A stretch of DNA of 64,000 nucleotides from Candidatus Nomurabacteria bacterium GW2011_GWD2_36_14 (GTDB lineage Bacteria > Patescibacteriota > Minisyncoccia > Phycocordibacterales > UBA9973). Below the pieces are notes generated by a model that was not told the origin of the DNA, did no database searches, and saw nothing but the letters and a program-made list of their open reading frames with translations. The stretch's first letter is position 1. Each line of letters opens with the position of its first letter. The DNA lies in assembly GCA_000991405.1 (NCBI GenBank), contig LBRL01000001.1, positions 145,547 to 209,546 of the forward strand. Reading direction: 5' to 3'. Of this stretch, positions 4,287-58,355 are shown piece by piece. A program made the translations under genes and the position numbers.

Positions 4287-5669
<1,383 letters not shown>

Positions 5670-11345: not shown

Positions 11346-11353
11346 AAAGATAG

Positions 11354-11433
11354 CGAAGTAGGATTGTTAAAATTTTTATCCGTGTCGGAGCCCTTTAGGG
11401 TAAAGCGGGAAAAATTTTAATAATCCTACGAAG
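11354..11433 (+). repeat. CGAAG-bracketed covarying hairpin element, copy 1 (invariant apex GTCGGAGCCCTTTAGGGTAAAGC at 11384..11406)
   Basis: CGAAG at 11354-11358 and 11429-11433. The ~23-nt AT-rich arms taggattgttaaaatttttatcc and ggaaaaattttaataatccta pair with one G-T. The element begins 4 nt after the prfA stop. Confidence 0.8.
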
Positions 11434-11437
11434 CGAT

Positions 11438-12409
11438 CTAATCTTCTTCCTCTTCCCCTATTACTCCAGCTGAAAGTGCCTCAATAATTTTAGTTATATT
11501 TCCTTCCATGATTCCGGGGATATTGGACCAAGATTGCTTTATACGGTGGTCGGTGACGCGATCTTGAGGAAAGTTGTATGTGCGGATCTTCTCACTTCTG
11601 TCATTTGTACCTATTTGAGCTTTTCTATCCCCTGAATATTTTTTAGCATCTTCCTCATCTTTAATCATTTGAAGCTTAGAAGTAAGCATCATCATAGCCT
11701 TTTCTCTGTTGCCAAGTTGGGTTCTCTCGGTTGTACAACGTACGTCTTCACCTGTTGGCTTATGTATCAGGCGAACAGCTGTCTCTACTTTGTTCACATT
11801 TTGCCCTCCTGCTCCACCAGAGCGTGAATACTCTATCTCTATATCGGCTGGGTTTATGATTATTGTTATCTTCTTTTTCAAAGGAAGCACAGCCACAGAT
11901 GCAGTAGAAGTATGTATTCTGCCATTCTTCTCTGTGGCGGGGATACGTTGAACTCTATGAACTCCAGTCTCATAGCGTAGAAGTTTGTATACATCTTTAC
12001 CTTTTACTTCTATAGAAGCTTCTTTGTAGCCCCCAGCACTACTTAAGGATTCATTGAGGATTTTCCAGTTCCAATTTTTCTCTTCAGAGAATCTTTCGTA
12101 CATATGTGCCAGCTCCCATGCAAAAAGTGAAGCTTCATCCCCTCCTGCTCCAGCTCTAACTTCTAGAATAATTTCATTGGGGAATTCTTCTTCCTCTTTT
12201 TCACTTTTCATTATTTCTTCTAGTTGTCTTTCTATTGCCTCCTTTTGAAATTTAATATTCTGGATTTCTTCTTCTGCTAAGTCGCGTAGACTTTCATCAG
12301 CTCTCACCATTTCATTTACTTTCTCTTCCTCACTCAAAAGGCGCTCATATTCTAGAGCGAAGTAACTAGTCTTGTGATCTTTCTTAAGTTGTTCTAAGTC
12401 TAATTGCAT
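11438..12409 (-). CDS. prfA: Peptide chain release factor 1
   Basis: [20 protein letters not shown] (GGQ), a PAT tripeptide ([17 protein letters not shown]) diagnostic of RF1, and an RF-1 domain. The track ORF begins with GTG at 12430; ATG at 12409 (MQLDLEQL) is preferred. Confidence 0.85.
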
Positions 12410-49039: not shown

Positions 49040-50086
49040 TTATGCTTCCTGCATTGTCATGCAGTGAATGGCTCCGCCACCGTAGATAATTTTCGAGCAG
49101 TCTATGCCTATTATCTTATGATTCGGAAATACAGACTGGATGATAGCTTGTGCCTTCTCATCATTCTTGTCATTGAAAACTGACATCAATACGACAGAGT
49201 TACTTATATAGAAATTCGTATAAGATACTGGAGCCTTTACACCATCGTCATAAGTCATGTGAGGCATAGGTAATTTAACAATTTTAAATTTATTACCATC
49301 TTTATCTAGCGCATTTTCTAGTATTTTGAAATTTGTATCAAGTATTGCAAAGTTTGGGTCACTTTCGTCATCTTCATAAGCACAAAGAATTGTATCTTCT
49401 GATACAAAGCGAGCTATTTCATCTATGTGTCCGTCTGTGTGGTCGTTTACCAAGCCCTCCTTCATCCAGACAATATTCTCTATTCCTAGATAATCTTTCA
49501 AATATTCTTCATACTTTTCTTTGCTCATGTCGCCATTTCTATTGGGATTTAGGAGACATTGTTCTGTCGTCATAAGAGTACCACGGCCATTACTTTCTAT
49601 TGCTCCACCTTCTAAGACTACCTCAGGTCGAAAGACTTCAGACTTCGATTTATTTATAATACTGTTGAAGACTTCATTGTCCTTCATAAGATCAGCAAAA
49701 TATGCATCATGACCTTTCCCATACGCAGTATAATTCCACTTCACAAAAGCTTTCTTGCCACTTTCTTTGTTTAATATTATTATCGGAGCGTAGTCTCTAG
49801 TCCAAACATCAGCATAATCCTCTTCAAAGAAAATAATGTTCTCCATATCGCATCCTGAATCTTGAAGTATCTTCTCTATTCTATTCTTCTCTTCACTTCT
49901 AACTATTAAGCTCACTTGCTCACTTCCTTCTAGCGCTTTGATAATTTCACAATAACTTTTCTCCACTTCGGGAATACTGTCTGGAAAGGTAGTATTGTCA
50001 TAAGGCCATGCAAGCCAAATAACTGAATGCTTTTCCCATTCTGCTGGCATACTGTAACCTAATTCTTTAGGAGTTTTTTGCATCAC
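49040..50086 (-). CDS. aguA: Agmatine deiminase (PAD-fold)
   Basis: C-terminal IYGGGAIHCMTMQE catalytic Cys motif and acidic DTDGHID-type segments. Confidence 0.8.
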   Translation of the reverse strand: MMQKTPKELGYSMPAEWEKHSVIWLAWPYDNTTFPDSIPEVEKSYCEIIKALEGSEQVSLIVRSEEKNRIEKILQDSGCDMENIIFFEEDYADVWTRDYAPIIILNKESGKKAFVKWNYTAYGKGHDAYFADLMKDNEVFNSIINKSKSEVFRPEVVLEGGAIESNGRGTLMTTEQCLLNPNRNGDMSKEKYEEYLKDYLGIENIVWMKEGLVNDHTDGHIDEIARFVSEDTILCAYEDDESDPNFAILDTNFKILENALDKDGNKFKIVKLPMPHMTYDDGVKAPVSYTNFYISNSVVLMSVFNDKNDEKAQAIIQSVFPNHKIIGIDCSKIIYGGGAIHCMTMQEA

Positions 50087-50958
50087 TACTTTTTCTTAAT
50101 ATTTTTATCAACTATCAAATTATAAGTATCAGGTCTACGATTGCGCAAGAATCCCCAACTTTCTCCAATATATTCATTCATTGCCAAGTCAAGAGTAGCT
50201 ACCACTGCTTCATCTTTGCCTTTACTTGCTCTTTTGAGTATTTTACCAAATGCATCTGATACAAATGATTGACCCCAGAATAGAGATTGTCCTTCTGTAC
50301 CAGTCCTATTTACAGCTATGACAGGCAAACTGTTTGCAATAGCGTGACCACGCATGATGGTCTCCCAAGCATTGTGCCAGTCACCTTCTATTTGCTCCTC
50401 ACCTTTGATCGTGCCTATAGCGGTAGGATAGAATATCATCTCCGCACCTGATAACTTGGCCATGCGAGCGGCCTCAGGAAACCATTGGTCAAAACATATA
50501 AGTACAGCGAAAGTAATATCCTTGTGTTTGAAAAGTTGATAGCCATTGTCCCCTTCAGCAAAATAATCTTTTTCATAAAAAGATGGGTCGTGAGGAATAT
50601 GCAACTTTCTATAACTTGGTTGCACTTCACCTTTCTCATTCAAGACTACAACAGTATTAAATAATTTACCTGACTTAGATTTCTCATAAATAGGTAGAAT
50701 TATAGAACAGCCATACTTCTTGGAAATAGATCTGAAGGCTTCTGTAGAAATACCTGGAATAGTCTCTAGAAATGTTTCAACTTTTACTCCCTTTTTGTTT
50801 GGGAAGTACGGGGTCTTGTAAAGTTCCTGCAAGCAGATAATCTCTGCGTCCTTCTTGGCCACACTCTCTACCATCTTGAGAGTCTTCTTCAAGTTTAATT
50901 CTAAATTATTTGATACACTACTTTGTACCAAACCTACTTTTACTAATTTCTTTTTCAT
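50086..50958 (-). CDS. aguB: N-carbamoylputrescine amidohydrolase (nitrilase-superfamily C-N hydrolase)
   Basis: VKVGLVQ..., catalytic-Cys region AVLICFDQWFPE, and the adjacent aguA. It overlaps aguA by 1 nt. Confidence 0.75.
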   Translation of the reverse strand: MKKKLVKVGLVQSSVSNNLELNLKKTLKMVESVAKKDAEIICLQELYKTPYFPNKKGVKVETFLETIPGISTEAFRSISKKYGCSIILPIYEKSKSGKLFNTVVVLNEKGEVQPSYRKLHIPHDPSFYEKDYFAEGDNGYQLFKHKDITFAVLICFDQWFPEAARMAKLSGAEMIFYPTAIGTIKGEEQIEGDWHNAWETIMRGHAIANSLPVIAVNRTGTEGQSLFWGQSFVSDAFGKILKRASKGKDEAVVATLDLAMNEYIGESWGFLRNRRPDTYNLIVDKNIKKK

Positions 50959-50969
50959 ACCAATATTTA

Positions 50970-51992
50970 TTAGGCTAAATACTTCTCGATAAGTTCGTTG
51001 GCTTCTATCGGATTGGATTTACATTCTAGAAGTGCAGTAAGCATGAGTGGGGCAACAATAGTAGCATCGGACTCCACGACGAACATTGGAGTATCTTTGG
51101 TAAGCTTGTCCCAAGTAATCTTCTCATTTGGAGTGGCACCTGAGTACGAACCATAAGAAGTAGTAGAGTCTGAGATCTGACAGAAGTAGGCCCAAGGCTT
51201 TACTTCTTTCTGTAAGTCGTACTTTATTGAAGGAACTACGCAAATAGGAAAGTCTCCTGAGATACCTCCTCCAATCTGAAAGAATCCTACCCCTTCACCT
51301 TTCGAAAGTTCCTGATACTGATCGTAGAATGCCACCATATATTCTATACCCGACTTTACTATGTTAGGACTACATTCCTCGCTCTTCACATATGAAGCAA
51401 AAATGTTGCCAAAAGTTGAATCTTCGTGTCCTGGGACAACTATAGGAATGTTGTTCTCAGCAGCCGCTAGGAGCCAGCACTCTTCAGCCTTGCCTTCGTG
51501 CAATTCTTTGTCAATTCCTTTTATCAAATCATAGAAATACTCATGCCAGAATTTACGAGTGCCATTGGCAGTGTATTCCTTCCAGATAGGTACAATCTTC
51601 TTCTCGACAACACGGAAGGCTTCGTCCTCGGGGATACTTGTATCGGTCACACGACGCATACGATCCTGTAGTATCTTGGTATCATCTTCTTTTGTAAAGT
51701 AACGATAGTCAGGGAAATCTTTGTAACTATGGTGAGCAACGAGACGGAAAAGTGATTCCTCCAAGTTGGCCCCTGTCACAGACATACCAGATATAAGTCC
51801 AGCACGAATAGCTGGAGCTAAGGTAATGCCCATTTGAGCCGAAGACATAGCACCTCCGACAGCCCAGAACATTTTGCCTCCTTTCTCAATATGTCGCCAA
51901 TAAGCAATAGTGGCATTCTTGGTAGCACGAGAATTGAAGTTCTTATAATTCTTTAAAATAAATTCTAATGTAGGTAAATTTGTATTTTGCAT
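50970..51992 (-). CDS. Deoxyhypusine-synthase-like protein (bacterial DHS-like homospermidine synthase candidate)
   Basis: DHS fold motifs: AVGGAMSSAQMG, VTGANLEESL, QIGGGISGD, SYSGATPNEKITWDKL (compare human SGARPDEAVSWGKI). Confidence 0.7.
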   Translation of the reverse strand: MQNTNLPTLEFILKNYKNFNSRATKNATIAYWRHIEKGGKMFWAVGGAMSSAQMGITLAPAIRAGLISGMSVTGANLEESLFRLVAHHSYKDFPDYRYFTKEDDTKILQDRMRRVTDTSIPEDEAFRVVEKKIVPIWKEYTANGTRKFWHEYFYDLIKGIDKELHEGKAEECWLLAAAENNIPIVVPGHEDSTFGNIFASYVKSEECSPNIVKSGIEYMVAFYDQYQELSKGEGVGFFQIGGGISGDFPICVVPSIKYDLQKEVKPWAYFCQISDSTTSYGSYSGATPNEKITWDKLTKDTPMFVVESDATIVAPLMLTALLECKSNPIEANELIEKYLA

Positions 51993-52031
51993 ATTTTTAA
52001 TTCTTAATTATTAATTCTTAATTAAATTATA

Positions 52032-53417
52032 CTACCATCCGAAATTTTTCCCAATATCTTCTGGGGATTCATGCTTACGAGCAACTACTATATGCCCATT
52101 TTCAGCTACTATTTTCATAGGGGAAGAAAGCATACAGTGCTGAGCAGCGAGCGAAGTCTGATAAGCTCCAGTATCGTAGACTACTATGTACATAGGCTCT
52201 CCATCGCCATTGTTGGAATTGTAATCTGGAAGTGTAACTGACCCATCAACTCCAGTATATATATCGTCGGAGTCACAAGAAGAACCAGCTAGCCATACAT
52301 CTGTAAGTTCTCCGTCTCTTTTGTTGTTCACAGGAGAAATAGCCCACTTCTGACCTATAGACCAAGTATCAAGCAGATCGTTCATGAAGCTTCCATCGAT
52401 AACATACCACTTCTTTGCGGGACTCTTTTTATTTGAAATTCTCTTCGTGTCAATAACTTTAAATACTGAAATCTGTGCTGGTGCCACTATGTAGCGACCC
52501 CATTCGCAAACCAAGTTTGGATGTGGAAGTTCCCTCTTCTCTGATTCTTTCTTTATAAGTTCAAGAATTTTTTCCATTAATTTATCTACTGGGTAACCTT
52601 TCGTCCTCATATAAGGTATTGGCATACCTCCACCAATATCGAGAGTATCAAGGGATGGATTCTTCTCTTTAAGTTTAAAGAAGACATCAAGAGCATACTT
52701 TATAGGGCCAAGTACATCAGATAATTTTTCAATTTGTGAACCGATGTGATAGTGAAGAATTTTCAAATTCTTAAATGAACCCATTTCCAGAATTTCTTTT
52801 GCAGAAAATCCAAAACGATCTATTGGCTTATTCCAATAAGAGCTTGCTTTGATAGGCATATCTAAACGAATCCCAACATCAAATTTAGAATATTGTAAAA
52901 ATTTAAGTTCATTGGGCCCTTCAATAAGTGGAAAGATTTTAACACCTTTATGTTGAAGATCATCGATAAGATTTATATAATTGTCAGTCTTAGGTCCTGA
53001 GCAAAGAATACGAATGTTTGGATTGAAAGTTTCTTGTTCGAGCATTTTCTTCACAAGCCAAAGTTCGTTATATGAAGAAGTCTCAAGATGTGCACCCTCA
53101 CCAACGATAGACATCACTATCTCCTTACTCTGGTTCACCTTCATAGGATAATGATAGAAGAATTTACCTTTATAACCCACTTTCTTCGAAAGTGCAGCTG
53201 TAAGGTCTAGGAAGTCTTCAAGCCTTTCCTCAATGACAAAAGGCATCAGTATCTCTAATGATGTTCCGAACTTTTCTGCTAAATATTTAACATTGTATAT
53301 ATTGTGGCCTTCCTTTATGATTAAATCTCCTTCTTTATTAAAATCAAAGTATTGAGTGTTGAAATCATTTATACCGAGCTTCCATAACTTTTTGGAAGCA
53401 ATTGAACGTTTTGTCAT
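52032..53417 (-). CDS. PLP-dependent Orn/DAP/Arg decarboxylase (alanine-racemase fold); arginine decarboxylase by context
   Basis: YPMKVNQ (PLP Lys), LDIGGGMPIPY, SSCDSDD (catalytic Cys). It is the first gene of the ADC/AguA/AguB operon. Confidence 0.6.
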   Translation of the reverse strand: MTKRSIASKKLWKLGINDFNTQYFDFNKEGDLIIKEGHNIYNVKYLAEKFGTSLEILMPFVIEERLEDFLDLTAALSKKVGYKGKFFYHYPMKVNQSKEIVMSIVGEGAHLETSSYNELWLVKKMLEQETFNPNIRILCSGPKTDNYINLIDDLQHKGVKIFPLIEGPNELKFLQYSKFDVGIRLDMPIKASSYWNKPIDRFGFSAKEILEMGSFKNLKILHYHIGSQIEKLSDVLGPIKYALDVFFKLKEKNPSLDTLDIGGGMPIPYMRTKGYPVDKLMEKILELIKKESEKRELPHPNLVCEWGRYIVAPAQISVFKVIDTKRISNKKSPAKKWYVIDGSFMNDLLDTWSIGQKWAISPVNNKRDGELTDVWLAGSSCDSDDIYTGVDGSVTLPDYNSNNGDGEPMYIVVYDTGAYQTSLAAQHCMLSSPMKIVAENGHIVVARKHESPEDIGKNFGW

Positions 53418-53525: not shown

Positions 53526-53556
53526 AACCAGATAGGGGTTGAGCCCCTATCTGGTT
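53526..53556 (-). terminator. Hairpin aaccagatagggg-ttgag-cccctatctggtt after dnaJ
   Basis: 13-bp stem. On the minus strand it is followed by uuuuucuuu. Confidence 0.7.
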
Positions 53557-54643
53557 AGATTCCATCTTCTTTTAGTTTTTCAATAGACTCTTTTGCTTTA
53601 CGGGAAAGTTTGGATGGCATAGTGACGTGAATACGGATGATGGTATCGCCTTTACCGTGAGTAGTCGGCACACCTTTGCCTTTGACTCGAAGCATCTCGC
53701 CGTTGTTTATGCCTTCGGGAATTTTGACTTCCATGTTTTTACCATCCAAAGTTTTTAAATCATAATTCATTCCCAGAAGTGCATCCGTGAGCTTTATGTT
53801 CAAATCCATCATCAAGTTCTGCCCTTCACGAGTATACACAGGGTGCGACTTCACATTGAGCTTCACGTACAAATCTCCGGCTTCTCCTCCTTGTATAGCT
53901 TCGCCTCTCCCACGTACACGAAGAGTCTCAGCATTATTTATACCAGATGGAATATTTAGACTTATCTCTTCATCTTTCCTTACTACGCCAGTACCCTTAC
54001 AGTTACTACACTTTTCAGAAGGAACTTTCCCTTTTCCAAAACAAGTCTCGCAAGTTTTCGTAGTTGCAAAGTTGCCAAGTATAGAACGGCGAACCTCTCG
54101 TACTTGTCCTTGCCCATCGCAAGTACTACAAGTATTCATTTTAGTACCAACTTTCGCCCCTGTACCAGTACAAATATTACAGACTGATTGTTTATTTATT
54201 TTTATATTTTTATCTACACCAAAGATAGCTTCTTCGAAAGACAAATTTACTTCTGTTTGTATGTCTCTGCCTTTCTTAACTTTTTGACTACGCCCCATAC
54301 CCCCACCAAAAAAGTCTCCAAAGATGTCTCCCAAGTTACCCATATCAAACTCTACTCCACCATTTTGCCCGGTGAAGTCGAATCCTCCGAAGCCTCCCTG
54401 CCCTCCGAATCCTCCACCACCAAAACCCTGAGGACCGTCGGCGTTGCCAAATTGATCGAAAGAGGCTCTCTTCTTGTCATCCGAAAGGACTTGATACGCT
54501 TCATTTATTTCTTTAAATTTTTTATCATCTCCTTTATTTTTATCTGGATGATGAGCATGAGCCAGCTTATGGAAAGCTTTCTTTATTTCTTCCTTGGAAG
54601 CATTTTTATTTACTCCTAATGTTTTGTAATAATCTTTGGGCAT
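53555..54643 (-). CDS. dnaJ: Chaperone DnaJ
   Basis: J-domain DYYKTLGV...HPDKN, G/F region, four CxxCxGxG zinc repeats. Confidence 0.9.
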   Translation of the reverse strand: MPKDYYKTLGVNKNASKEEIKKAFHKLAHAHHPDKNKGDDKKFKEINEAYQVLSDDKKRASFDQFGNADGPQGFGGGGFGGQGGFGGFDFTGQNGGVEFDMGNLGDIFGDFFGGGMGRSQKVKKGRDIQTEVNLSFEEAIFGVDKNIKINKQSVCNICTGTGAKVGTKMNTCSTCDGQGQVREVRRSILGNFATTKTCETCFGKGKVPSEKCSNCKGTGVVRKDEEISLNIPSGINNAETLRVRGRGEAIQGGEAGDLYVKLNVKSHPVYTREGQNLMMDLNIKLTDALLGMNYDLKTLDGKNMEVKIPEGINNGEMLRVKGKGVPTTHGKGDTIIRIHVTMPSKLSRKAKESIEKLKEDGI

Positions 54644-54823: not shown

Positions 54824-56716
54824 TTATTTCTGTTCTGGATTCTCGTTTACCTCTGCGTCCTTTATTTCAGGACCTTGCTCTTCTGGAGGTTTGGCTTCCT
54901 CTTTAGGAGCTTCGTTCGCCTTGCTCATGGCTTCGCCAATTTTCGACATTTCATTTGAAAGTTCTTCTGTTGCTTTCTTTATAGCTTCCATGTCGTTGCC
55001 TTCTTTTGCAGTTTTTAACGCAGTTATTTTATTTTCAATTTCTGTTTTTATCTCTGGAGTAATTTTATCGCCGTACTCTTTGACAGACTTCTCTGCTGTG
55101 AAGATCATCATTTCAGCTGTATTTTTATGATCAGCTAATTCTTTCTTCTTGGCATCTTCTTCGGCGTGAGCTTCGGCTTCATCACGCATCTTCTTGATAT
55201 CTGCTTCTGTAAGTCCTGATGAAGCTTCAATACGAATAGACTGTACTTTGCCCGAAGCTTTATCCATAGCTTTTACATTTAAGATTCCATTGGCATCTAC
55301 ATCGAAAGTAACTTCCACTTGAGGAATACCGCGTGGTGAAGGTGGAATACCATCTAAGATGAATCTACCAAGAGACTTGTTGTCGCTTGCCATAGGACGC
55401 TCACCTTGAGTGATGTGTATTTCTACACTTGTCTGATTGTCGGCAGCAGTTGAGAATATCTGTGACTTTGATGAAGGTATGGTTGTGTTGCGTTCTACAA
55501 GCTTGGTAGCAACCCCTCCAAGAGTTTCAATACCAAGAGATAGCGGAATGACATCAAGGAGAAGTACATCGCGTACGTCGCCTTGTAGGACTCCAGCTTG
55601 GACAGCAGCACCGAGAGCTACAACTTCATCTGGGTTAATAGAACGATTTGGTTCCTTGTTAAATAACTTTTTAACTTCTTCGACAATTTTAGGCATTCTT
55701 GTCTGTCCTCCAACTAAGATGATTTCATTGATCTCATTCATTTTAAATGGAGAAGCTTCTACTGCTCTTTTTGTAATTTCAATAGAGCGAGTGACGTACT
55801 CTTCTGCAAGAGACTCAAGTACTGCACGAGACATCTTCAAAAGTAAATGCTTGGGACCAGAAGCATCTGAAGTGATAAATGGAATATTAATTTCTGAATC
55901 TGTTGTTGTTGAAAGTTCATGTTTTGTCTTCTCAGCAGCCTCCTTTAGACGTTGAAGTGCAAGGACATCCTTAGTAACGTCAATACCTGACTCCTTCTTG
56001 TATTCATCGGCAATCCACTTCACAATCTTCTGGTCGATATCTTCACCTCCCATGTGCGAGTCGCCGTCTGTAGATTTCACTTCGATAACATCATCACCAA
56101 CTTCTAGAACTGACACGTCGAACGTTCCTCCTCCAAAGTCGTAAACAACTATCTTCTCATTCTTCTTTGTATTGAATCCATAAGCAAGAGCGGCCGCAGT
56201 AGGTTCATTGATAATACGCTTTACATCAAGTCCTGCAATGATTCCGGCATCCTTTGTTGCTTTTCTTTGAGCATCGTTGAAATATGCAGGTACTGTAATG
56301 ACTGCTTCGGTAATCTTCTCGCCGAGTTTTGCTTCTACATCTGCCTTAATCTTACTTAAAATCATTGCAGAAATTTCTTCTGGGCGTAGCCAACTATCTC
56401 CAATCTTTGTTTCTACTCCACCTGTACTTCCTTTCTGAATTTTATAAGGAATAGTCTTCTCATCTTTTTGTATTTCTGGATCATCGTACATGTGACCGAT
56501 GAATCTCTTAATACCGTAAACAGTATTTTCGGGATTTGTCACTGCCTGACGCTTCGCTAGAAGACCCACCATACGATCACCATTCTTGGTAATTGCTACT
56601 ACAGAAGGAGTTGTACGTGCACCCTCAATATTCTCAATAATTTTTGGTTGACCACCTTCAATGATAGCTACTGCACTATTTGTTGTACCCAAATCGATAC
56701 CTATAATTTTACTCAT
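54824..56716 (-). CDS. dnaK: Chaperone DnaK (Hsp70)
   Basis: [23 protein letters not shown], 630 aa. Confidence 0.95.
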
Positions 56717-56749
56717 ATGTTTTTTATAATTAATTAATAATAATTTTAA

Positions 56750-56828
56750 CGTAGCAGAGATATTAAAATTTTTATCAGCGTCGGAGCCCTTTAGGGTAAA
56801 GCTGTGAAAATTTTAATATTTCTGCGAA
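56750..56828 (+). repeat. CGAAG-bracketed covarying hairpin element, copy 3 (apex 56780..56802), in the dnaK leader
   Basis: CGtAG at 56750-56754 and CGAAG at 56824-56828. Arms cagagatattaaaatttttatcagc / gctgtgaaaattttaatatttctg pair with one G-T. The element lies 32 nt upstream of the dnaK ATG. Confidence 0.8.
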
Positions 56829-56857
56829 GTTAATTTATACTTTTAAACACTCTTCTT

Positions 56858-56885
56858 ATTATATACTAACTTTAATTTTTGACAA
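56858..56885 (-). promoter_or_regulatory. Candidate dnaK promoter (-35 TTGTCA, 16-nt spacer, -10 TATAAT)
   Basis: Minus strand reads cTTGTCAaaaattaaagttagtaTATAATaag, so the transcript would begin just upstream of hairpin copy 3. Confidence 0.5.
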
Positions 56886-56910
56886 GTATTTAGCGACCGC
56901 TAAATACTTG
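56883..56910. promoter_or_regulatory. Perfect inverted repeat CAAGTATTTAGCG-ac-CGCTAAATACTTG (candidate operator)
   Basis: 13-bp arms with a 2-nt spacer. It overlaps the -35 of the dnaK promoter and abuts the -35 of the divergent regulator-gene promoter. Confidence 0.55.
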
Positions 56911-56939
56911 TTGAATATTATATACACATATGATATACT
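56911..56939 (+). promoter_or_regulatory. Candidate promoter of the PaaX-like regulator gene (-35 TTGAAT, 17-nt spacer, -10 TATACT)
   Basis: TTGAATattatatacacatatgaTATACT, ending 9 nt before the ATG at 56949. Confidence 0.45.
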
Positions 56940-56948
56940 GTCAATACC

Positions 56949-57473
56949 ATGAAAAAGCGTGATTTTTCAAAGAAAATTATAAAAATCCTATCCGAAAGAC
57001 CTGCTGTTTCTGTGCCAGAATTGGAGGAGAGGATTGTATTGAATAAAGATAGTCAATACGCTCTAAATCGCTCCATAAAGGGTCTAAAGGACGCAGGATT
57101 GATAGAAAGTATATACTCAGGTCAAAACCAATATACAAAGCTCACAAAAGAAGGTAAAAAACGAGCAAATAGTTTAAAACTTGAATGTGAGAATACTCTT
57201 ATTAGCAACACCTGGGACGGATTTTGGAGAATAATTCTGCTTGATATGCCTGAGGATAGAAAAAGTGAACGGGAAGCACTTCGCTACTTACTCAAGAAAG
57301 CAGGCTTCGCCTGCTTAAAGAACTCTGTCTGGATATCTATGTACCCTTTCGAACATCTATTCACAAATATAAAAAAGGATTTAAATTTATCTACTGAACT
57401 TATAATTATAGTCACTGACAAAATCGACAAAGAAACAGAAAAAGAATTCTTTAGCTTATGCCAAAAGGTGTGA
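56949..57473 (+). CDS. Short PaaX-like winged-helix transcriptional regulator
   Basis: N-terminal wHTH (KIIKILSERPAVSVPELEERIV). The C-terminus, WDGFWRIILLDMPEDRKSEREALRYLLKKAGFACLKNSVWIS, matches the PaaX_C pattern (W-G-W...LP...R...LR..L...GFG.L...VW.S). Confidence 0.45.
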   Translation: MKKRDFSKKIIKILSERPAVSVPELEERIVLNKDSQYALNRSIKGLKDAGLIESIYSGQNQYTKLTKEGKKRANSLKLECENTLISNTWDGFWRIILLDMPEDRKSEREALRYLLKKAGFACLKNSVWISMYPFEHLFTNIKKDLNLSTELIIIVTDKIDKETEKEFFSLCQKV

Positions 57474-57602
57474 ACCTTAAGGTCTTGCATAAAATAGCTC
57501 TCCTCGAAGGGTCCGCATAATTTCTTGCTAGAAATTTGCTCATTGCTCGGTCCGTCGACCTCCGCCGGCCCCTTCTCAGAGACTATTTTATTACAGACCA
57601 AC

Positions 57603-58289
57603 CTATTTCTTATATTCGTAAATAGTTACTTTCGCTGGGCGGATGACGCGCTCACCAATTTTGTAACCCACTTGTAAGACTTTCTCTACAGTGTGATCTT
57701 TCTTTTCATCATCAGTATTTACAATACTTATAGACTGATGAATACTGGGATCGAAAGGCACTTCTATCTTATCTATCTTTTCAATGCCAGATTTTTCTAA
57801 GCCAGAAAGAAGTTGCTGGTAGATAGAAGTGATGCCATCTTGCCAATCTTTGTCTATTTTCTCCCAATGTTCTTTATTTGAAAATGCCATTTCGAAGCTA
57901 TCAAGAGCCGGAAGCAACTTCTCTACCATTTTTTCTTTAGTTAAAATAGATATATTCGTACGGGCTAGATCAAGCTCTTTCTGCAAGTTCACATAGTCAG
58001 CCTTGGCTCTCTGCCAACCAGTCAAATACTCCTCCTTTTCTTGGCGACAAACTTTCAAATCTTCACGAATTTTCTTAGTCACATCTTTAGATGATAAGTC
58101 TTCTCCATCTTCTGTAGTTTCTACATAAGTCATTTCTGGTTCACCATGTATACCATTGGCTGTGGCAAAGGGTTCATAATGATCTGTTATAGACTTCTCA
58201 TCTGGGACGATAAGAGGCACTTCTTTGGAATTATTAACCTGGTCTTCTATAGGAGCACCTTCACTATATATTATTTCTTCATCTTTCAT
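57603..58289 (-). CDS. grpE: Nucleotide exchange factor GrpE
   Basis: Long N-terminal helix (LQKELDLARTNISILTKEKMVEKLLPALDSFE) and a C-terminal beta domain (DPSIHQSISIV...VLQVGYKIGERVIRPAKVTI). Confidence 0.85.
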   Translation of the reverse strand: MKDEEIIYSEGAPIEDQVNNSKEVPLIVPDEKSITDHYEPFATANGIHGEPEMTYVETTEDGEDLSSKDVTKKIREDLKVCRQEKEEYLTGWQRAKADYVNLQKELDLARTNISILTKEKMVEKLLPALDSFEMAFSNKEHWEKIDKDWQDGITSIYQQLLSGLEKSGIEKIDKIEVPFDPSIHQSISIVNTDDEKKDHTVEKVLQVGYKIGERVIRPAKVTIYEYKK

Positions 58290-58303
58290 GCTCTTATCTT
58301 ATA

Positions 58304-58335
58304 CAAAAATACAAACTTTTTCAAGTTTGTATTTT
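58304..58335 (-). terminator. Hairpin aaaaatacaaact-ttttc-aagtttgtattttt between rpsI and grpE
   Basis: 13-bp AT-rich stem with flanking A/T tracts. Confidence 0.45.
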
Positions 58336-58355
58336 TTAAAAATATCTTTAGTATT

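Follow-up and report, generated by a model that had tools for sequence, protein, structure and literature searches.

In the 64,000-nucleotide stretch of Candidatus Nomurabacteria bacterium GW2011_GWD2_36_14 analysed here as a whole (the window), the chaperone gene dnaK on the minus strand is separated by a 232-bp spacer from a divergent open reading frame (ORF; 56949-57473, plus strand), whose 174-amino-acid (aa) product we name REG. The spacer contains a perfect palindrome that is conserved in related genomes, and our comparative data indicate that REG probably binds this putative operator and co-regulates its own gene and dnaK. We also favor, with somewhat less assurance, the reading that REG is a negatively autoregulated repressor dedicated to the dnaK chaperone operon, while on heat or protein misfolding as the inducing signal, which is drawn from analogy, our judgment is evenly balanced. 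A first-pass annotation of the window had proposed the PaaX-like protein as the dnaK repressor in an autoregulated divergent layout, and this proposal finds support in synteny, operator conservation, a fixed distance to REG, promoter overlap and specificity. The spacer has the arrangement that would be expected of an autoregulated divergent repressor-operator module, with one conserved palindrome that overlaps the core promoters on both sides and keeps a constant distance to REG.

The palindrome is the inverted repeat CAAGTATTTAGCG-ac-CGCTAAATACTTG at 56883-56910, with perfect 13-nt arms around a 2-nt centre (13-2-13), exactly as it had first been annotated. When imperfect flanks are counted it reaches from 56873 to 56920, and the conserved extended form of the operator, to which no strand is assigned, reads TTTTTGAC...GT.AAA at approximately 56876-56915. 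Perfect inverted repeats whose arms measure 13 nt or more and whose spacer does not exceed 4 nt did not occur in 60 first-order Markov simulations of the window (0 found); the real window contains about seven, most of them terminator-like. The palindrome is non-random yet not unique as a palindrome, and it is singled out by its position and its cross-species conservation.

Both divergent promoters touch the palindrome. Promoter P2 of dnaK (minus strand, 56858-56885) combines a -35 hexamer TTGTCA (56885-56880), a 16-nt spacer and a -10 hexamer TATAAT (56863-56858) with 11 of 12 consensus matches; its -35 hexamer overlaps the left arm at that arm's outer CAA, and we infer a transcript start near 56851. 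The REG promoter (plus strand, 56911-56939; -35 TTGAAT 56911-56916, 17 nt, -10 TATACT 56934-56939) abuts the right arm with its -35 hexamer and ends 9 nt before the ATG at 56949, and the REG mRNA would be leaderless or nearly so. These two promoters had already been recognized at the same places in the first-pass annotation, which did not contain the alternative or additional candidate promoter P1 on the minus strand (56917-56944; TTGACA 56944-56939, 16 nt, TATAAT 56922-56917). P1 matches the consensus at 12 of 12 positions and overlaps the REG promoter on the opposite strand; if used, it is predicted to start near 56910, at the edge of the palindrome, and to read through the operator to dnaK. 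Minus-strand promoter-like matches are found at the relative position of P1 in most relatives, and in many of them the TGTCAA of the P1-like site is formed by the codons ATG-TCA-A. Further promoter-like arrangements consist of a TTGACA -35 in one flank and an AATACT -10 in the opposite arm.

The best palindrome in the orthologous dnaK-REG spacers is recurrently ACAAGTATTT[C/A]G[T/C]G-NN-C[A/G]C[G/T]AAATACTTGT, and the weight matrix gives the operator consensus TTTTTGACAAGTATTTCGYG-GT/AC-CRCGAAATACTTGT, with an information content of 1.6-2 bits in the operator vs. approximately 0-0.6 in the flanks. The matrix, symmetrised and built from 128 distinct sites, was used to scan 200 sources (the window and 199 loci) with a threshold of at least 12 bits; exactly one match was obtained in 182 sources and two in none, with a shuffled-sequence maximum of -7. 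The check proposed in the first-pass annotation was whether the palindrome is present upstream of orthologous dnaK genes, and we found a match in 78 of 80 related genome loci (sampled at species level, 60-93% identity to REG), one copy per locus. Operators are still recognizable in relatives with 33-38% identity, e.g., TTTTGACAAGTTTTCTGTGGATACAAAATACTTGTCAAA in locus L217 and TTTTTGACAAGTATTTTGCGAGCGGTAAAACCTTGT in locus L200. The centre of the operator lies about 50 nt before the REG ATG in 133 of 171 loci, and anywhere from 41 to more than 600 nt away from the dnaK ATG. Several loci (L019, L031, L036 and L110) have genes inserted on the dnaK side of the operator, which remains with REG. A metagenome collection was scanned for the exact operator pattern AAGTWTTTNGNGNNCNCNRAAWRCTT, and among the at least 119 matches listed, 99 are flanked by REG and/or dnaK. 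The remaining 20 lie mostly inside long ORFs on contigs of 41-56% GC and look like chance matches.

Alignment of the relatives on the operator centre yields the consensus ...AtTATATAC...TTTTTgaCAAGTATTTCGTGgtCGCgAAATACTTGT.aAAt...TAatAT...ATG. Toward dnaK, TATAaT lies 17 nt beyond a -35 TTGtcA that overlaps with the left arm at its outer CAA, a layout with at least 10 of 12 matches in 97 of 128 sites. Toward REG, most relatives have the mirror layout, in which a -35 TTGTnA overlaps the TTG of the right arm and the -10 TAatAT is located about 7 nt before the ATG, which implies a leaderless REG mRNA. The window and its closest relatives exhibit a 3-bp shift, hence TTGAAT abuts the right arm. Every promoter arrangement would put the operator in the RNA polymerase footprint, thus the prediction of repression is independent of the choice of promoter.

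In the 128 distinct operators, positions +/-2, 4, 7, 8, 13 and 14 are essentially invariant in each arm, and the variable positions change independently between the arms. The pairs at position +/-3 are T/G (41), C/G (39), T/A (35) and C/A (13), i.e., 74 Watson-Crick pairs against 61 expected under independence. The operator is flanked by a T-run upstream and an A-run downstream, which is the reverse of a terminator, and it has no Rfam match at either gathering or permissive thresholds. Taken together, the invariant arms, the independent changes, the reversed T- and A-runs and the lack of an Rfam match are the signature of a protein-binding site. An intrinsic terminator was considered and rejected on account of the reversed runs and of the sequence-invariant, non-compensating arms, which are unlike those of the rpsI terminators in the same loci. 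The operator centre (window 56895-56898) is asymmetric in the otherwise symmetric site: the central dinucleotide is GT in 60 and AC in 54 of the 128 operators, giving GGTC or GACC, it is self-complementary in 4 of 128, and its orientation relative to REG is random.

The first-pass statement that the palindrome is not a CIRCE (controlling inverted repeat of chaperone expression), HAIR (HspR-associated inverted repeat) or CtsR box was borne out, as none of these elements accompanies dnaK in the 1.5 Mb comprising the window and the 199 loci. The sole CIRCE match (TTAGCACTC-N9-GAGTGCTAA, at most 2 mismatches per arm) lies inside a dnaK coding region, and CtsR heptads (GGTCAAA-NAN-GGTCAAA) gave scattered one-mismatch matches with no consistent relation to dnaK. 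HAIR (CTTGAGT-N7-ACTCAAG) gave seven loose matches, and only that of L068 is in a dnaK-REG spacer, beside the normal operator. In L068 (approximately 4890-4920) an extra perfect palindrome, TTACTTGGGTGTC-G-GACACCCAAGTAA, stands beside a degenerate normal operator and is loosely HAIR-like, with the arm ends ACTTG/CAAGT in swapped order. The resemblance of the inner TTAGCG/CGCTAA to CIRCE half-sites, which had been remarked on earlier, proved coincidental: the consensus is TTTCGYG, and we rejected the likeness because TTAGCG is a clade-specific state of positions that are degenerate (A/C and T/G) across relatives. Ten window ORFs of hrcA-like size (323-356 aa) were scanned and proved to encode ordinary housekeeping or metabolic enzymes and no HrcA. 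Nor was hrcA found at its canonical position upstream of grpE, where rpsI is located, and the earlier claim that the window lacks hrcA holds for these ten ORFs and this position. Probes for GroEL, HrcA (B. subtilis), ClpB and HspR gave no matches in 1.59 Mb.

REG consists of a winged helix-turn-helix (wHTH) and a Cas2-like PaaX_M domain. PaaX_M (PF20803), the central domain of PaaX, is matched at residues 87-166 with an E-value of 8.4e-20 and 71 bits against a Pfam cut-off of 24, and the N-terminal half has only weak matches to HTH_20 and MarR_2. PaaX_C has no Pfam match in REG at E ≤ 0.1, the protein ending at residue 174. The earlier description of a PaaX-like winged-helix protein stands for PaaX_M, the wHTH and the PaaX fold, while the PaaX_C domain whose confirmation had been suggested is absent. 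REG scores 38.5 bits with TIGR02277, the NCBIfam equivalog model of PaaX with a curated cut-off of 264.55 bits, and the alignment is confined to positions 40-166 of the 279 in the profile; its BLASTP identity to E. coli PaaX is 29% over 77 aa (E = 0.03), and a search of the PDB sequences with the family profile gave no significant match. An AlphaFold2 model (predicted local distance difference test score 77.6) has three helices followed by two strands at residues 7-65. The best Foldseek matches are 8a39 (PaaX of E. coli W) and 3l09 (a PaaX-like protein of Jannaschia), with 14% identity over 172 columns, and the N-terminal half also aligns to wHTH proteins of the MarR/ArsR type. REG corresponds to the first two domains of PaaX, which make up the DNA-binding and dimerization core of such a repressor, and neither by profile nor by fold is it HrcA, MerR/HspR or CtsR. 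The recognition-helix residues Y37, A38, R41, S42 and K44 are invariant.

The closest homologues of REG belong to Candidatus Nomurabacteria and Paceibacterota of the Candidate Phyla Radiation (CPR)/Patescibacteria. A word-indexed search retrieved 2120 homologues, and relatives are encoded in 491 stretches of GTDB species representatives. In a library clustered at 50% identity, REG matches 13 clusters at E ≤ 1e-30, 315 at 1e-10 and 2532 at 1e-3, mostly of 180-200 aa, from which it follows that REG proper is a tight orthologous group within a large superfamily of short wHTH + PaaX_M proteins. Three paralogues of this kind that are encoded away from dnaK (27-34% identity) are each directly preceded by a GGTC/GACC-centred palindrome, i.e., ATATTCCGCGGTCGCGGATAAT in L203 (upstream of 211), AAGAGTGCGGTCGTACTCTT in L204 (upstream of 4001) and ATTTCACGACCGTGAAT in L209 (upstream of 373). 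This type of palindrome therefore travels with the protein family and not with dnaK, which is the strongest indirect pointer to REG as its binder, and suggests that a GGTC/GACC-centred palindrome could be a superfamily-wide type of autoregulatory site.

The dnaK gene of the window (54824-56716, minus strand; Pfam HSP70, E = 1e-241), the predicted target of REG, has dnaJ (53555-54643, minus strand; Pfam DnaJ, DnaJ_C and DnaJ_CXXCXGXG) downstream of it, and the two are probably co-transcribed; dnaJ comes after dnaK in many related loci. Upstream of REG, dnaK lies on the opposite strand in 75 of the 80 related genome loci, and four of the other five end at contig ends. The usual order beyond REG is a convergent grpE and then rpsI. 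At 38-40% identity, a REG relative (L200) is divergent from dnaK-dnaJ, and at 33-35% identity three independent relatives (L201, L208 and L217/L218) are divergent from grpE-dnaK operons, in which grpE is the first gene. The linkage persists while the adjacent chaperone gene changes, which argues for a function of REG tied to the chaperone system. Other relatives at 26-37% identity (L202, L204 and L205) occur in contexts of unrelated kinds, among them proS/ksgA, a response regulator and enolase.

We favor a model in which a REG dimer, joined by the Cas2-like domain as in PaaX, would occupy the 28-32-bp operator and exclude RNA polymerase from the promoters of dnaK(-dnaJ) and REG by occluding their -35 regions; bound REG would also block P1, if P1 is used. 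The outcome would be negative autoregulation together with repression of dnaK-dnaJ, or of grpE-dnaK(-dnaJ) in deeper-branching relatives. Because the effector domain of PaaX is absent, and by analogy with RheA, HspR and HrcA, proteotoxic or heat stress may well be what releases REG from the DNA, with REG itself being thermolabile or a chaperone co-repressor being titrated away.

Several observations weigh against this model. One related locus, L020, has no dnaK within 1.45 kb upstream of REG, and a few loci have REG and the operator separated by more than 200 nt. When the positions of the operator were compared with the residues of REG by mutual information, only phylogenetic noise and no signal from the recognition helix emerged. 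The promoters can be assigned in several alternative ways (P1, or the TTGACA flank with AATACT in the opposite arm), with starts that are predicted only, and the operator centre would lie at about -45 from the start of dnaK P2 and about -50 from that of REG, which are positions that activators also use. No convincing second target of the operator emerged from a fuzzy pattern search of the window, the weight-matrix scan of the 200 sources or the metagenome matches listed, and in these scans no operator was found upstream of groESL, clpB or grpE, the latter including the grpE genes of the clade to which REG belongs. REG would therefore be a regulator of a single operon and not a global heat-shock regulator. 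The loci examined contain no groEL, clpB or hrcA genes.

REG could co-regulate itself and dnaK in response to something other than heat or misfolding, such as a small-molecule ligand of the Cas2-like domain, the growth state or the state of host attachment, with dnaK being no more than the neighbor that it regulates. Regulators of the PaaX family are controlled by ligands (PMC9493321), other short PaaX_M paralogues are encoded in the unrelated contexts listed above, and the operator is found at no other stress gene in our scans. We nevertheless consider such a signal unlikely, as the domain to which a review ascribes phenylacetyl-CoA binding in PaaX (PMC9493321) is missing in REG, and relatives with as little as 33% identity remain linked to dnaK or grpE-dnaK despite the changes of the adjacent chaperone gene.

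That REG is an activator, recruiting RNA polymerase from a site upstream of or overlapping the -35 hexamers, would be compatible with the predicted distances of the operator centre from the two starts. It is quite improbable, since promoters near the consensus (11/12, and 12/12 for P1) that are conserved as such should work without an activator, the operator overlaps the -35 hexamers and would cover the +1 position or the core promoter if P1 or the embedded promoters are used, and PaaX, the closest characterized relative, is a repressor (PMC9493321).

Still less credit is due to the idea that the palindrome is bound by a different, unlinked regulator, e.g., of the HrcA or HspR type, and that REG is an unrelated neighbor. 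The operator does adjoin dnaK, the usual target of such regulators, but the site fits none of CIRCE, HAIR and CtsR, its distance is fixed to REG and not to dnaK, and it follows REG where genes are inserted toward dnaK. Moreover, similar GGTC-centred palindromes precede the paralogues away from dnaK, and the half-site resembles PaaX boxes. A role of the palindrome as a nucleic-acid structure (terminator, 5' leader hairpin of the P1 transcript or RNA thermometer) is barely credible: the consensus scan flags terminator-likeness on the plus strand and an active P1 would give a dnaK transcript beginning with a 13-bp hairpin, but the palindrome has its T-run upstream and its A-run downstream and does not lie at the end of any plus-strand gene, the arms are invariant with non-compensating variable positions (74 vs. 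61 at +/-3), and the stems of genuine terminators in the same loci vary freely with compensation, the operator itself being without an Rfam match.

The dnaK leader contains a long hairpin at 56746-56833 on the minus strand (88 nt, 27-nt arms, RNA fold z = -5), and the first-pass annotation was right to place a hairpin here. It is a copy of a repeated element, and another copy at 11348-11439 shares the conserved core GCTTTACCCTAAAGGGCTCCGAC, with outer stems of different sequence that still pair. The dnaK leaders of L001 and L005 contain the hairpin, while those of L002-L004, which are shorter, lack it, and it is thus an insertion and not part of the conserved control region. No Rfam match was obtained, and it looks like an inserted small structured repeat or an element resembling miniature inverted-repeat transposable elements. 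The dnaK gene has no Shine-Dalgarno sequence, and an AT-rich leader just before its ATG (minus strand, ...ATTATCAAAATTATTAGTTAATTATATAAAA...) is conserved in the window (56717-56745) and in L002-L004, L058, L064 and L067.

On the other side of REG, grpE (57603-58289, minus strand; Pfam GrpE) is convergent with it. The terminator behind which grpE had been placed at first pass is the intrinsic terminator of rpsI (58296-58345, minus strand), built of an A-run, a stem and a T-run upstream of grpE; the orthologous rpsI-grpE spacers have the same architecture, with stems that vary freely with compensation. The palindrome at 58296-58345 was also considered as a second operator, for grpE, and was rejected because it is this terminator and its stems are variable across relatives. 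A long imperfect hairpin between the convergent 3' ends of REG and grpE (57481-57599; arms of 17 nt separated by 85 nt) may be a terminator for both directions or a further structured repeat. A few relatives have variable small genes inserted on one side of the operator, toward REG or toward dnaK (L118 at 1157-1867, L019, L031, L033, L036 and L110); they encode a Y1/IS200-like transposase-like ORF (L118, REG side) and small hypothetical or membrane proteins, and would fall under the control of the operator. Directly downstream of dnaJ (49040-53417) the window contains polyamine/hypusine-type genes, i.e., agmatine deiminase-like (PAD_porph), deoxyhypusine synthase-like (DS) and Orn/Arg decarboxylase.

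CPR/Patescibacteria represent a large share of bacterial diversity and have very few regulators, and to our knowledge nothing is known experimentally about the regulation of their stress genes. Our literature search found nothing linking PaaX-like proteins, HrcA or any other regulator to dnaK control in this group. The regulatory logic proposed here is classical, with a chaperone operon governed by a divergent, autoregulated repressor through a palindromic operator, and the protein family appears new in this role. Conservation of the module extends over hundreds of species. We tentatively propose, with more reserve than confidence, that REG represents an unrecognized family of chaperone-operon regulators in CPR of the Paceibacteria/Parcubacteria type (at least 491 species-level genomes) that replaces HrcA, HspR or sigma-32, that its Cas2-like domain both dimerizes and senses stress, being thermolabile or DnaK-dependent, and that the approximately 2500 clusters of short wHTH + PaaX_M proteins are autoregulators of GGTC-centred palindromes. 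The analysis provides a concrete triad of regulator, operator and target, with a 174-aa protein, a 28-32-bp consensus operator and two near-consensus promoters. If true, REG would be the fifth repressor family of bacterial heat-shock operons after HrcA, HspR, CtsR and RheA, and the DNA-binding and dimerization core of the PaaX type could work without a ligand-binding domain. The operator motif could be used for annotating dnaK control in hundreds of metagenome-assembled genomes.

The hrcA gene is classically adjacent to grpE-dnaK, and HrcA negatively regulates the dnaK and groE operons. The HrcA/CIRCE system shares with REG a long palindromic operator overlapping the promoter and, as is predicted for REG, the negative control of dnaK; HrcA belongs to a different protein family, and here rpsI takes the place of hrcA upstream of grpE. 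HspR of Actinobacteria, Helicobacter and Campylobacter is a MerR-family repressor encoded inside the dnaK operon, with DnaK as its co-repressor. As is predicted for REG, HspR acts as a dedicated, autoregulated repressor whose gene is linked to the dnaK operon and whose binding site is an inverted repeat at the dnaK promoter, and DnaK acting as co-repressor in the HspR fashion is a plausible model for REG; unlike HspR, REG is not MerR-like, and its gene is not inside the dnaK operon or associated with a HAIR box. RheA of Streptomyces albus is divergent from hsp18 and represses both genes via an intergenic inverted repeat. As is proposed for REG, it is a divergent repressor dedicated to one operon, but it is from an unrelated protein family with a different operator, and its target is a small heat-shock protein and not DnaK.

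The closest relative in structure is PaaX. Its presumed binding sequence is a 15-bp box, WWTRTGATTCGYGWT, and the boxes that we read directly in the paaZ-paaA spacer of E. coli K-12 (L213, 2344-2630), TGATTCGCG on the paaZ side and TGATTCGTG-N13-CACGAAAA on the paaA side, are in line with it. These boxes also agree with the published site TGATTC-N27-GAATCA (PMC9493321). In PaaX the half-sites are approximately 27 bp apart, in contrast to 2 bp in the REG operator (PMC9493321). PaaX is a protein of 316 aa with paa genes as neighbors and with a C-terminal domain described in a review as phenylacetyl-CoA-binding (PMC9493321), whereas REG, with 174 aa, is devoid of that domain and has chaperone neighbors; no paa genes were found near REG, its neighbors in the window and in 75 of the 80 related loci being dnaK, dnaJ, grpE and rpsI. 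At the promoters Px and Pz, PaaX represses transcription in competition with RNA polymerase, and at Px it thereby represses its own gene (PMC9493321). In E. coli and Pseudomonas, PaaX has the same order of an N-terminal wHTH and a Cas2-like dimerization domain (PF20803), it is the best structural match to REG, and its CGYG-containing box TGATTCGYG resembles the REG half-site ATTTCGYG.

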